Below the pieces are notes generated by a model that did no database searches, was not told where the DNA came from, and worked only from the letters and a program-made list of their open reading frames with translations. Shown here in pieces: positions 1,937 through 18,300 of a DNA stretch of 18,304 bases. The translations under genes and the position numbers were made by a program. The stretch's first letter is position 1. The number at the start of each line of letters is the position of its first letter. The stretch lies in assembly GCA_048882485.1 (NCBI GenBank), contig JBHLRP010000061.1:1-18304 (forward strand). The letters are read 5' to 3'. Source of the stretch: Candidatus Thorarchaeota archaeon (GTDB taxonomy: Archaea; Asgardarchaeota; Thorarchaeia; Thorarchaeales; Thorarchaeaceae).

Positions 1937-3124
1937 TTGTCCAACTTAACAGCTGTGTTCAGTCCCGAAGAACTGCTCAAGATGGACGGGATTGACGAGC
2001 TGGACACCATGAGGATAGAACCGAACCCGTTCTGGAACAGACCCCGGCTTGATATAACTTGGAGTTTGCCAGTCATGTCAGGGCTGATTAAGAGTGACAG
2101 GATTTCCTTGCATCAGATGAGGCTAGCCACTCGCGAGGAGCTGGGGCTCTATCATGACCCCTCATACATCGAAACTCTGGAGCTGTTCGGCAACATGGGG
2201 TCTGCATTTTCCTCGCGTTTCGGCCTTGACACAGATGAGTGTCCAGTGTTCCATCAGGTGGATAAATACGCAAGCTATCCGGTAGGTGCAACTATTGATG
2301 CAGTTATGGGCGTCGCTGATGGAAAATTCGAAGACGCGATGTCAATCATCGGCGGGTTTCACCACGCCTATAGCTCGAATGCCGGAGGATTCTGCTATCT
2401 AAATGACACAGTGGTAGCAATCAAGAAGTTTCAAGAGAAGTATCCCGGCAAGAAGGTGTTGTACTTGGACACCGATGTCCATCATGGTGACGCAACACAA
2501 GAAGCATTCTATCATGATCCTACGGTACTGACTATCTCAACTCACGAACTGAGCATGGGCTTCTATCCTGGGACTGGGCGACCAGAAGAGATTGGAATTG
2601 GTGAAGGAAAGGGTTACTCTGTGAACATTCCATTGCCTCCGCTCACTGACGATTTCGAATATTGGAAGGCCTTTGAAGAACTCGTTGTACCCATATGGCT
2701 GGCTTACAAGCCCGACTTGGTGTTTTGGAATGCTGGTGCAGATGCTCACATGGATGATCCGCTCTCAGACCTCCTTCTGAATCTTGACACATATCATCGC
2801 TTATCGAAGACTGTACGCCAACTGGCGCATCTAGGAAACAAGAAACTGGTCATTGTAGGCGGCGGCGGATATCATCCGGTCACTGCTGCACGAGTCTGGA
2901 CCGTGCTTCTTGCAGACCTAGCTGACATCGCACTACCGCCCTTGGTTCCAGCAGAATGGATAGAGCTATGCCACAAACATGGCTTCGAGGTGAAACGAGG
3001 AGGATGGACTGACCGGCCTCAGAGAATGTATGCAGAGCATGAATCAAAGGTGAGGAGAGCAGTGGATGAAACCATCGAAAAGGTGAAGGAACTCATTTTT
3101 CCGACTTTTGGATTGGAGAAGTGA
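1937..3124 (+). CDS. Histone deacetylase family protein, class I/AcuC-like
   Basis: Motifs GGFHHA, GFCYLND, LDTDVHHGD, YPGTG, VNIPLP, GADAH..DPL and GGGGY. TTG start preceded by GGAGGAG. Confidence 0.93.
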   Translation: MSNLTAVFSPEELLKMDGIDELDTMRIEPNPFWNRPRLDITWSLPVMSGLIKSDRISLHQMRLATREELGLYHDPSYIETLELFGNMGSAFSSRFGLDTDECPVFHQVDKYASYPVGATIDAVMGVADGKFEDAMSIIGGFHHAYSSNAGGFCYLNDTVVAIKKFQEKYPGKKVLYLDTDVHHGDATQEAFYHDPTVLTISTHELSMGFYPGTGRPEEIGIGEGKGYSVNIPLPPLTDDFEYWKAFEELVVPIWLAYKPDLVFWNAGADAHMDDPLSDLLLNLDTYHRLSKTVRQLAHLGNKKLVIVGGGGYHPVTAARVWTVLLADLADIALPPLVPAEWIELCHKHGFEVKRGGWTDRPQRMYAEHESKVRRAVDETIEKVKELIFPTFGLEK

Positions 3125-9056: not shown

Positions 9057-9070
9057 TTAACTATTGTTAA
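9057..9070. promoter_or_regulatory. Putative operator TTAAC-N4-GTTAA, copy 1 (upstream of SRPBCC gene)
   Basis: TTAACTATTGTTAA is a dyad directly 5' of the SD. Its 12-bp core recurs at 14605 and 18288. Confidence 0.6.
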
Positions 9071-9546: not shown

Positions 9547-10023
9547 ATGGATGAAAAGAGGTTGGATGTATTGGCAACTGGCTATAGGGTTGAGAGAACA
9601 AATCCATCAGAAATTAGTTCCATTCTAAGTCTCCTCAATGATGTGGATCTTCCTGTTGAGGGAGTGAAGGAGCACATCTCGAATTTCTTGACATTAAAGG
9701 GCAATGACAATGAGTCGAATTTCGAACCATTGGGATGCGCAGGCTTGGAGGTATATGGCAATTCTGCTTTGCTCAGGTCGATGGCAATAGCCCCAGAATA
9801 TCAGGGAAGAGGTTTGGGTACCGTCCTTACCGAGGCGATAATAAAAGACGCCCGAGAGAAGGGAATCAAAACACTGTTTCTACTTACAGAAACCGCTGAG
9901 GACTTCTTCAGACGTTTTGGCTTCCGAGTGGTAGAGAGAGGGATTGTTCCAAGAGATGTGAAGACATCAATCGAATTCACCAAGTTGTGTACGGAAACGC
10001 CCGCCATGATGTTGGAAATCTAG
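9547..10023 (+). CDS. GNAT N-acetyltransferase, ArsN2-like
   Basis: GCAGLEVYGNSALLRSMAI, QGRGLG acetyl-CoA motif, LFLLTETAEDFFRRFGF and C-terminal SIEFTKLC. Alternative TTG start at 9571. Confidence 0.87.
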   Translation: MDEKRLDVLATGYRVERTNPSEISSILSLLNDVDLPVEGVKEHISNFLTLKGNDNESNFEPLGCAGLEVYGNSALLRSMAIAPEYQGRGLGTVLTEAIIKDAREKGIKTLFLLTETAEDFFRRFGFRVVERGIVPRDVKTSIEFTKLCTETPAMMLEI

Positions 10024-11216: not shown

Positions 11217-11277
11217 TTTGAAACATTTGAGCCACAATTGACTCCTTCTTAAGTCGTATTCTGTGTACATCCGTCCA

Positions 11278-12399
11278 ATGAAAGGGTATAAGGAAGCAGT
11301 CACACCAAGCCAGTTCGAGTCTACATTGCCACAAGATGCTATTACTCTCATAGACCAGTCAGGAAACGACAAGCATGTCGCTCCATTTATCAAGCCCAGT
11401 CTTGAAGCATTTGAGAATCCAGAACGAATTGAGATGACGTTGCAGTACCTTGAAGAAACGAAGTCACTGGAACATGTAAAGACGTTCAAAACAGCTCAGG
11501 CAACAGAAGAGGAGGCCCTTCTTGTCCATAAACCATATCTCGTTCAGTCGATTCAGCTGATGTCCGATCTTGGTGGAGGCGAGTTGGGGGAATCAGCCTG
11601 GGCAAGTGAAGATCTGTGGTCCTCAGCTATGCATGCTTTAGGAGGGGCCCTCCTTGCAGGCGAATTAGTCGCTTCGAAGGCATGCAGACACTCGTTTGCT
11701 CTGGTTCGACCTCCAGGACATCATGCAACAACCTCTTCATCCATGGGCCTCTGCTTCTTCAACAATGTGGCAATCGCAGTCAGAAACATTCAGGCTGAGA
11801 ATGGGATTCAGAGAGTTTCGATTCTCGATATAGACGACCACTTTGGAAATGGGACGTCTGAGATCTTCTATGAGGATTCTAATGTTCAGTTCATCAGCAT
11901 CCATGAGTATGATTACACGAGCTTCGGAATCGGGCACTATCGAGAGATTGGGCATGGTAATGGAGCTGGAACTAACATCAATATTCCTCTACATCGAGAG
12001 GCGTCTGATTCAACCTACCGGATGGCGATTGATAAGGTTGTGACTCCAGCCATAGAGAAGTTCAATCCAGATGTTATTGCGGTTTCAGCTGGATATGATG
12101 CACATTTTGCAGACCCCATTGGGGAGATGGCTGTGGATTCTGAAACCTATTGGTACATAGCATCTGTGGTTGAGAGGCTCGTCGACTCTTGCGGGATGAA
12201 AGGGTCATTTTGGGTCCTTGAAGGTGGCTATAATCCGTTGACTCTTGGACCATGTGTCAAGGCAACATTGGAGGGGCTGCATGGGAAGCCTTGCCCTCAG
12301 CTTGAGGACCAAGAGCCACGAGAGATAGAGGAGGATGTGGTGAAGCTTAACCGCAAGACCATCAAGAAGGTCTTGGAATCGGTTTCTTCCTTCATATGA
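11278..12399 (+). CDS. Histone deacetylase family protein, class II-like
   Basis: ENPERI, RPPGHHA, GLCFFNN, LDIDDHFGNGT, NINIPL, SAGYDAH..DP and LEGGY. Start is ATG 11278 or GTG 11263. Confidence 0.93.
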   Translation: MKGYKEAVTPSQFESTLPQDAITLIDQSGNDKHVAPFIKPSLEAFENPERIEMTLQYLEETKSLEHVKTFKTAQATEEEALLVHKPYLVQSIQLMSDLGGGELGESAWASEDLWSSAMHALGGALLAGELVASKACRHSFALVRPPGHHATTSSSMGLCFFNNVAIAVRNIQAENGIQRVSILDIDDHFGNGTSEIFYEDSNVQFISIHEYDYTSFGIGHYREIGHGNGAGTNINIPLHREASDSTYRMAIDKVVTPAIEKFNPDVIAVSAGYDAHFADPIGEMAVDSETYWYIASVVERLVDSCGMKGSFWVLEGGYNPLTLGPCVKATLEGLHGKPCPQLEDQEPREIEEDVVKLNRKTIKKVLESVSSFI

Positions 12400-14313: not shown

Positions 14314-14589
14314 CTAGTTCTGTAGAATTTTCTTACCTTTCACAATAATAGAACCAACCACCATCAGAACGACTCCATAAATCACGCCATTTACGGCGGC
14401 TCGCATTAGGTGCAAGGAGGAATCTCGAAGAGAACTTGTACCCGGCGAGATAAGAGAGAGCGCGGGAAGAATCGTGTCTGGATAAAGATATGTCAAACCA
14501 GCAGCGATGCCGAATCCTATTATGAGAAAGCCAACCATGAGACCAATGTTCACATGGGGTTTGCTTCTGACGAATTTCTCCTTAGACAA
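14314..14589 (-). CDS. Small two-TM membrane protein with bacterial EF-Tu-like N-terminal peptide (91 aa)
   Basis: TTG 14589 follows SD GGTGAT at a 3-nt spacing, the same as at 17541. Translation is MSKEKFVRSKPHVNIG, then TM1 (LMVGFLIIGFGIAAGLTYLY), TM2 (AAVNGVIYGVVLMVVGSIIV) and a basic tail. Confidence 0.8.
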   Translation of the reverse strand: MSKEKFVRSKPHVNIGLMVGFLIIGFGIAAGLTYLYPDTILPALSLISPGTSSLRDSSLHLMRAAVNGVIYGVVLMVVGSIIVKGKKILQN

Positions 14590-14603
14590 CCAATCACCCA
14601 AAA

Positions 14604-14617
14604 TTAACTATTGTTAC
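14604..14617. promoter_or_regulatory. Putative operator TAAC-N4-GTTA, copy 2
   Basis: TTAACTATTGTTA is identical to 9057-9069 over 13 bp. It has the same orientation and nearly the same distance to the start codon of a minus-strand gene. Confidence 0.6.
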
Positions 14618-16257: not shown

Positions 16258-17097
16258 TTGGAGCCTATGAGCGTTCTAATGATCACTTTGGCCTTGCTTG
16301 CTCTCCCTATAGGAGTCCTAGTAGGTCTCGCAGCCGGCGTGATCGGTCTTACTGCATGGCCAATATTGGTCCCGCTGCTACTCGTTTTTGGAGGATACCC
16401 TCTTCACGAAGTCCTTCTTTCCAGTCTGCTTGTTGATTTGATGATAGCAGCTGTCCTTTCAATCTTCTACATCCGAAACAAAGACGTTGATGTAGATAGC
16501 GTGTATGGTGCGAAGTTAGGTGGTGTTGCTGGAATCATAGCATTAGTCACGGCAGTTCTCGTTTTCCCCATACTAAATCAGTATTCAAACCTCTTCGAGG
16601 GAGGGTCATCTATTGTCACACTGCTTTTTGGAGGACTATTCATCATTCAGGCGATTAGAATGGATGACTCTTCTAGTGTAGGAGATGAGAGACCAAGCCA
16701 AAGACAGCTCTCTGACAAACAGAAGGACGGCATCGCATATGGGTTCTGTATCTTGCAGGGATTTATCACAGGTCTTATTGCCATAGGAGGCGCGATGAAC
16801 ATTGTACTTGTTCTTATGTTCATCCTAGGATATCCTACGCTTAGGGCAGTGGGAACTGCAATGGTAGCAACGACAGTCATGCTCTCCGTGACCGTGATTG
16901 CATTCCTCATTCTTCTTCAATTCAGTGTGTCTACCTTGCCAATTGTTGTGCTGTACGTCTTGATTGGATCAATAAGCAGCTATCTAGCTGTCACACGGGT
17001 TCAAAACATCTCAGAGCGCAAATTGCGTTTCACTATTGGAATAGTTATACTGACTGCTGCTATCTTCGCTACTGCACAAGTCTATTTCATAGGATGA
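16258..17097 (+). CDS. Sulfite exporter TauE/SafE family membrane protein
   Basis: Two repeats of about 4 TMs with GLAAGVIG..ILVPLL and GFITGLIAIGG...AVGTAM motifs. Start is TTG 16258 or ATG 16267. Confidence 0.82.
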   Translation: MEPMSVLMITLALLALPIGVLVGLAAGVIGLTAWPILVPLLLVFGGYPLHEVLLSSLLVDLMIAAVLSIFYIRNKDVDVDSVYGAKLGGVAGIIALVTAVLVFPILNQYSNLFEGGSSIVTLLFGGLFIIQAIRMDDSSSVGDERPSQRQLSDKQKDGIAYGFCILQGFITGLIAIGGAMNIVLVLMFILGYPTLRAVGTAMVATTVMLSVTVIAFLILLQFSVSTLPIVVLYVLIGSISSYLAVTRVQNISERKLRFTIGIVILTAAIFATAQVYFIG

Positions 17098-17447
17098 GTA
17101 CGTGACGTTCTATTTGAGGCCCAAGTCATTAGGGGGGTGATTAGAGACCTCAGCTCTTTACCATCGTCTGTCAATGAGTACTCTACGCGCGGTGGAATCT
17201 CAGCAAATGCCTTTCTTCTTATGATTCGTTCTTCCTCGAGCTGCTTTAGCCTTTCAGCCAAGACTGTGGGACTGATTCCAAAGCACAAGGATTGGATTTC
17301 ACCATATCTTAGGCTTCCTTGATTTCCAATCAGTGTCACTATCTGGAGTGTCCATTTCCTGCTTATTGTGTGGATAACTCCCTCCAAGGGACAGAGGCAT
17401 ACCCCATTTATCGACTTTCTATTACATTCGGCTTTTTCTGAAGACAT
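17082..17447 (-). CDS. HxlR/DUF24 family winged-helix transcriptional regulator
   Basis: CP...ISRKWTLQIV, LRYGEI, GISPTVLAERLKQLEE and EIPPRVEYSLTDDG. Its 3' end overlaps the TauE gene by 16 bp. Confidence 0.93.
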   Translation of the reverse strand: MSSEKAECNRKSINGVCLCPLEGVIHTISRKWTLQIVTLIGNQGSLRYGEIQSLCFGISPTVLAERLKQLEEERIIRRKAFAEIPPRVEYSLTDDGKELRSLITPLMTWASNRTSRTHPMK

Positions 17448-18286: not shown

Positions 18287-18300
18287 TTAACAATAGTTAT
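18287..18300. promoter_or_regulatory. Putative operator TAAC-N4-GTTA, copy 3 (inverted)
   Basis: TAACAATAGTTA at 18288-18299 is the exact reverse complement of TAACTATTGTTA and lies upstream of VIT1. Confidence 0.5.

Follow-up and report, generated by a model that had tools for sequence, protein, structure and literature searches.

The window analysed here is the whole stretch of 18,304 nucleotides, positions 1-18,304 of contig JBHLRP010000061.1 in the assembly GCA_048882485.1 of Candidatus Thorarchaeota archaeon. On its minus strand lies an open reading frame of 91 codons, starting with TTG and closed by a TAG, that encodes a membrane protein assigned here to subfamily A of a two-helix family (Table 1). 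Elsewhere the window carries two histone-deacetylase-family genes (1937-3124 and 11263-12399), a PolX-like fragment (3-755) and an HxlR gene (17082-17447).

The original prediction had placed the start of the protein at this TTG on the strength of a preceding Shine-Dalgarno sequence, and the homologous genes bear this out. Their start codon, be it ATG, TTG, GTG, ATT or ATC, occupies one shared position with a conserved Shine-Dalgarno sequence upstream, and an internal methionine at position 18 occurs in just one of 11 homologous genes. The start at 14589 is therefore supported, and initiation at the internal methionine does not hold for subfamily A; some public gene calls (P0003) begin wrongly at Met18. 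The homologues bear the name Ca. Thorarchaeota in public records. A chimeric assembly had been named as a possible origin of the junction at 14542, where the N-terminal peptide meets the first helix, but contigs of three different studies (X5, X11 and X13) bridge this position without a joint.

Table 1. Features of the hairpin gene and its surroundings in the window
Feature	Position	Strand	Basis
Gene of 91-aa two-helix membrane protein, subfamily A	14314-14589	-	TTG start, homologues, AlphaFold2 model
Bacterial EF-Tu N-terminal peptide, codons 1-16, predicted cytoplasmic	14542-14589	-	EF-Tu matches; pN 0.06, pS 0.87
Transmembrane helix 1, residues 17-35	14485-14541	-	Model (helix begins within the peptide, at residue 12); pN 0.28
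Outside loop, residues 36-60	14410-14484	-	Conserved YPD and SSLRD motifs, short helix in model
Transmembrane helix 2, residues 61-83	14341-14409	-	Invariant N67-G68 and Y71; model; pN 0.38
Basic C-terminal tail KGKKILQN, most conserved part	14317-14340	-	pN 0.026
Shine-Dalgarno-like GGTGA	14594-14598	-	4 nt ahead of TTG; most homologues have a comparable purine tract
Palindrome TAAC-N4-GTTA, probable repressor operator	14605-14616		Conserved ahead of the hairpin gene in Thorarchaeota members of subfamilies A, B and C
ArsN2-like GNAT acetyltransferase near the hairpin gene	9547-10023

The N-terminal peptide and its origin

As had been proposed, residues 1-16 of the protein reproduce the beginning of Escherichia coli EF-Tu, with 13 of 16 positions identical, the match being in register with the initiator and ending before the P-loop. 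NCBIfam EF-Tu models match residues 1-18 of the window protein with an E-value of 0.013 and a homologous carrier with 6.5e-5, and the best PDB sequence match has an E-value of 0.0046. A profile of the family peptide reaches 57.6 bits on bacterial EF-Tu, compared with a maximum of 15.9 bits among 1.25 million windows of host open reading frames, so the match is not due to chance. The family consensus, which has Asp at position 9, is identical at all 16 positions to 74 returned bacterial EF-Tu starts, whose named sources are Myxococcales, Binatia and others.

The claim that the peptide has the bacterial form, absent from archaeal EF-1alpha, was also upheld. The bacterial form, with its F-x-R stretch, is missing from all 34 Asgard EF-1alpha starts examined, and what the host's own EF-1alpha shares with the peptide is the first five residues and H-x-N. 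Two EF-1alpha matches (G003:C15 and G024:C2) each have one in-frame TGA within the matched stretch. A search of five carrier genomes for bacterial EF-Tu found none, the best match having 39% identity. Judged by these sequences, the peptide is not native to the proteome of its host. The EF-Tu N-terminus is known as a recognition site in plants (elf18, in Arabidopsis) and as a site of modification in bacteria (trimethylation of Lys5, in Pseudomonas) (PMC6822514).

The hairpin scaffold and selection on its tails

An AlphaFold2 model of the protein consists of two long helices, spanning residues 12-35 and 57-90, with a mean pLDDT of 86.8 and residues 1-11 unstructured. Basic residues cluster in both tails, which makes a topology with both termini inside the cell likely. 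The protein belongs to a hitherto undescribed Asgard family of two-helix membrane proteins, for which a literature search found no published description. This family comprises about 80 proteins; 43 relatives were found by sequence search and 65 by a profile of residues 17-91. The latter region has no significant profile or fold match in Pfam, NCBIfam, PHROG or PDB, and Foldseek returned nothing below E=3 against PDB. The same hairpin stands at the C-terminal end of several Lokiarchaeia proteins of 230-260 aa (L103, L104, L105, L107, L110, L111 and L112), which begin with long amphipathic repeats that are rich in Arg and recall antimicrobial peptides.

In subfamily A, with about 40 proteins of 54-80% identity, the EF-Tu peptide and the KGKKILQN tail are near-invariant while the helices drift, and in the divergent proteins P0043 and P0044 the peptide is identical at 16 of 16 positions. 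The rates given in Table 1, calculated across 11 genes, show strong purifying selection on the peptide, and the C-terminal tail has a pN lower still. Since the low pN of the peptide is accompanied by saturated synonymous sites, the constraint acts on the protein, and constraint at the DNA level or a recent mobile element was rejected. Retention of the peptide in homologues and synonymous divergence of its codons, both suggested in the original prediction as checks, were thus found. The prediction had treated a captured tuf fragment and a selected mimic as alternatives. Capture and selection probably followed one another, the peptide having been acquired once long ago and afterwards kept, and it is the either/or that falls away. 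No donor was found for KGKKILQN: its viral matches are unrelated proteins, and baseplate, tube and EF-Tu proteins score at background level.

The same peptide on GLMP-like proteins

A pattern scan of 400 Asgard genomes yielded 17 true carriers of the peptide, ten of which are proteins of 360-460 aa from other families. About 45 such long carriers are known, GLMP-like proteins of Lokiarchaeia, and in many of them the likeness to EF-Tu runs on as far as residue 18. In fold, the outer domain of these proteins is similar to lysosomal GLMP (E=1.5e-6, for a model with a mean pLDDT of 65), and 13 of the 33 invariant columns of the family fall within residues 1-14. A metzincin-like HExxH motif occurs in the GLMP-like domain of L055-L061 at residues about 80-95 (Pfam E-values 0.016-0.5), and the C-terminal tail of L063 may contain an HU-like start motif.

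Sister subfamilies with contractile-tail-like tails

Subfamily B has the same hairpin with a different N-terminal tail. In each of the seven viral baseplate J proteins fetched, the top score of a profile of this tail falls at the initiator (per-protein E-values from 1.6e-4 to 2.7e-2). Subfamily C retains the EF-Tu start and bears a PEWT segment at the C-terminal end; in its longest member (P0048) this tail matches positions 16-34 of TIGR02243 with E=0.023 and the PDB baseplate chain 9gtp with E=0.07. The C-terminal tails of the Lokiarchaeia GLMP-like proteins match the Baseplate_J segment in 5/7 baseplates and the gp19 tube motif in 5/6 tubes, and that of subfamily B matches five of the seven fetched baseplates weakly (E=0.009-0.12). 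The pairings of tails seen are EF-Tu with KGKKILQN, EF-Tu with PEWT, EF-Tu with RLRH (P0080, with an ATT start), and a baseplate start with RLRH.

These assignments are to be read with some caution. The baseplate and tube donors were candidates chosen in advance and then scored by profile, the library-wide E-values of their matches are weak (0.02-0.15), and the pattern of donors is biased, as recognisable donors are highly conserved ones only. The profile test of PEWT is circular, the baseplates having been fetched with the PEWTDHN motif, and a scan with the five-residue PEWT pattern is too unspecific; the tests of the subfamily B N-terminal tail and of the Baseplate_J segment are independent of this fetching. 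No tube or baseplate genes were found in five carrier genomes, although tube genes are present in 8 of the 400 genomes of Asgard archaea. Viral contigs scanned by pattern yielded neither a protein with the EF-Tu peptide nor an exact baseplate of the RVSERLRHK type, a motif presumably present in Afp11-type baseplates, and PDB sequence searches with the subfamily B and Lokiarchaeia tails were blank.

Several Asgard genes related to tail proteins were observed alongside. One baseplate-like protein (L206, genome G105) carries the motif as PEWTN, a variant that also occurs in the tails of subfamily C. A UvrD-like helicase (L134, 703-1821) has an embedded gp19 tube fragment, apparently borrowed (profile positions 20-66, E=4.8e-6). 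Among the Asgard gp19 tube genes L127, L129, L130 and L131-L133, several have no other recognised tail gene within their 1.5 kb flanks, and L128 and L138 resemble proviral tail clusters.

On a phylogenetic tree built from the scaffold only, the tails are stable within clades, which indicates that their exchange was ancient and rare. A single origin of the EF-Tu tail was not rejected (p-AU 0.108), and one clade was rejected solely for the KGKKILQN group (p-AU 0.014, one of five tests), so ongoing shuffling of tails is unsupported. The original proposal, centred on EF-Tu, is partly supported: in subfamily A this peptide is under selection, and in the family as a whole it is one of several exchangeable borrowed tails. 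Subfamily B, with a baseplate-like start in place of EF-Tu, argues for a general display role.

Operator palindrome, distribution and gene neighbourhood

In most Thorarchaeota members of the three subfamilies the palindrome TAAC-N4-GTTA lies 15-29 nt ahead of the start codon, usually as the sole such site within 10 kb. The GLMP-like genes, unlike the hairpin genes, are not preceded by it. Genome-wide there are 35 sites, with about 10 expected, and 14 of them are the exact 12-mer; besides the one at the hairpin gene, the window contains sites at 9058-9069 and 18288-18299. Genes downstream of palindromes, among them detoxification, redox and iron genes, include those for aldo-keto and flavin reductases, aldehyde dehydrogenase, glyoxalase, photolyase, FTR1, VIT1, TusA and SRPBCC proteins, as well as one for a DUF4062/NB-ARC/TPR protein. 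This suggests that the palindrome ties the hairpin gene to a putative detoxification and redox regulon, for which the HxlR protein encoded in the window is a candidate regulator.

The hairpin was found in 15 of 86 genomes of the host's family and in about 14 of the 135 genomes from a second family of Asgard archaea, and its gene neighbourhoods vary among genomes. In a genome of the same genus (G011; L003, 1498-1610) a deletion of about 1.8 kb took out three adjacent genes together with the promoter and the peptide, and what is left of the hairpin gene is its 3' half. The patchy distribution, variable neighbourhood and same-genus deletion fit an accessory role. In one subfamily A member (L097 1402-1716, genome G362) both tails have decayed and the scaffold is intact.

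No conserved defence-gene neighbour was found in the neighbourhood survey. A gene for an ArsN2-like GNAT acetyltransferase, present in the window, is no further than 5 kb from the hairpin in 6 of the 12 genomes that have both genes, in about three independent contexts; further such loci are L049 (6375-6830 and 8622-9059), L234 and L235. This proximity may reflect a shared stress island.

Proposed function

That selection keeps 15 particular residues of a short and flexible tail points to a sequence-specific reader. The likeliest interpretation, advanced tentatively, is that the hairpin is a membrane-anchored display of foreign conserved peptides on the cytoplasmic side, acting as a bait or decoy. 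A small hairpin of an old archaeal scaffold, with both ends inside, would serve as the tether, and its borrowed peptides, the bacterial EF-Tu start here and contractile-tail baseplate segments in the sister subfamilies, would be exposed at the cytoplasmic face. Possible partners that recognise those segments are enzymes, effectors or tail subunits of foreign origin, or a pattern receptor of the host itself; once bound by the tails, the partner would be kept at the membrane when the stress regulon is induced. The interpretation is favoured by the identity of the peptide to living foreign proteins, the absence of the donors from the hosts, the several unrelated donors, the parallel capture by phages, and the portability of the peptide onto the GLMP-like family with its different fold. 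It is weakened by the lack of an identified reader and of a conserved defence neighbour, and by a regulon made up mostly of detoxification and redox enzymes rather than defence genes. The tails are also clade-stable, unlike fast-evolving decoys of an arms race, the tree is compatible with the hairpin having gained its EF-Tu tail only once, and the C-terminal tail of the window protein itself has no donor.

As the main rival reading, which appears somewhat less likely, the foreign peptides could instead have been captured by accident and co-opted as host signals for sorting, retention, turnover or modification, recognised by an Asgard housekeeping reader, so that their foreign look would merely record their history. 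Two scaffolds that differ in fold, the hairpin and the GLMP-like protein, do carry the same tails, the tails show long stasis within clades, and in L097 both decayed jointly while the scaffold stayed intact; the ArsN2-like acetyltransferase encoded nearby in half of the genomes with both genes and the first five residues shared with the host EF-1alpha point the same way. Co-opted signals would, however, be expected to drift from the donor, yet the consensus is identical to living bacterial EF-Tu. None of the tails was found on any other protein of this genome, and several unrelated donors would each need a host reader of their own.

It is improbable that the EF-Tu start acts in synthesis, as a translation-enhancing nascent peptide and a positively charged signal-anchor front that sets the topology. 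Effects of charge or initiation need no 15 fixed residues such as F6, P11, H12 and N14, saturated synonymous sites leave the mRNA unconstrained, and neither the equally conserved C-terminal tails nor the baseplate-type N-terminal tail of subfamily B would be explained. What speaks for such a role is that the peptide always stands at the initiator, directly ahead of helix 1 and often behind weak starts (TTG, ATT or ATC), that peptide and helix 1 resemble a unit common to both scaffolds, and that N-terminal SKIK-like tags raise expression.

Descent of the peptide from archaeal EF-1alpha, or convergence, combined with a chance likeness to baseplate and tube proteins, is very improbable and for the EF-Tu peptide itself largely refuted. 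The resemblance to the host EF-1alpha and the modest library E-values of the other tails are outweighed by 16-18 identical EF-Tu residues, including the F-V-R stretch absent from 34/34 Asgard EF-1alpha, by the profile score far above background, and by three separate tails that each map where expected within a single donor family. That the fusion arose in assembly, or is a tuf fragment of recent origin and without function, might be suspected in a metagenome bin with 5.8% contamination, but is refuted by the fusion in dozens of independent assemblies, the bridged junction and the purifying selection.

A wider form of the bait or decoy interpretation, that Asgard archaea possess a repertoire of tethered bacterial and contractile-tail peptides used as baits or ligands in pattern recognition or decoy defence, is rather doubtful. 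If it were true, the archaeal relatives of eukaryotes would have their own equivalent of the elf18-type recognition of bacterial EF-Tu, and a defensive role would mean that the lineage nearest to eukaryotes assembles immunity from captured epitopes in a novel manner. As signals for sorting or modification, on the other hand, the tails would be rare cases of such cytoplasmic-tail signals among Asgard membrane proteins, one of them on a homologue with the fold of a lysosomal protein. In either case the scaffold has diverged or been exchanged, while in several classes of Asgard archaea a 16-residue peptide has stayed identical to a foreign protein, which implies a sequence-specific reader, and the tails are short and defined, so that the reader could be fished out directly with synthetic peptides.

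Comparison with known systems

To our knowledge, an archaeal membrane tether with selected, exchangeable foreign end peptides matches no described system. Compared with bacterial EF-Tu (TIGR00485, PF00009), the window protein has the bacterial-type N-terminal segment in register with the initiator but neither the P-loop GHxDHGKT nor the G domain: the match stops at residue 16-18, scores are 12.9-14.3 bits against cut-offs of 449-522, there is no Pfam match, and the peptide leads into a membrane helix in an archaeon without EF-Tu. The GLMP-like Asgard proteins have the identical N-terminal peptide ahead of helix 1 and share the RLRH-type C-terminal tail with subfamily B and P0080; they are larger, at 360-460 aa, and carry a large outer beta domain, where the window protein has a 25-residue loop and no beta-sandwich.

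With baseplate J proteins of contractile injection systems and myoviruses (TIGR02243, PF04865) and with tube proteins (PF06841), the relatives share segments of 12-19 residues, namely the start of the baseplate protein, the PEWT segment that comes next, the Baseplate_J segment and the tube motif. They have these peptides only, without a full Baseplate_J or gp19 domain, and the window protein itself has no contractile-tail-like tail. A similar two-helix fold over residues 16-91 is seen in Bathyarchaeia membrane hairpins of 89 aa and in the N-domain of DUF4332/HhH proteins (ESM Atlas clusters), where it anchors a presumably cytoplasmic domain. The TM scores of 0.66-0.72, up to 0.81 for P0045, compare one predicted model with another; homology searches returned no match named Bathyarchaeia, and the feature scores of 0.82-0.89 are leads, the likeness being by predicted fold alone.

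Plant integrated decoys and substrate-mimic antitoxins display a conserved piece of a target to catch the enzyme of an attacker; the target that they copy is one of the host itself, and a receptor or toxin gene is linked to them. The hairpin resembles them in that the mimicked segment is under protein-level selection (pN 0.06, pS 0.87), and differs in that its copy is foreign and that no receptor, toxin or defence locus is linked to it, the loose association with the ArsN2-like GNAT gene being the only one. A parallel in origin is offered by phages, which independently carry small proteins with the same EF-Tu N-terminal segment. Such proteins, presumed mimics, were found in Vibrio, Erwinia and Serratia phages (L230-L233, 59-141 aa), the Erwinia one following a GNAT gene, and include phrog_27465, gp215 of Erwinia phage ChrisDB and VPDG_00052 of Vibrio phage henriette. 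They are soluble, reach through a P-loop-like stretch and have no second borrowed tail, in contrast to the membrane hairpin.
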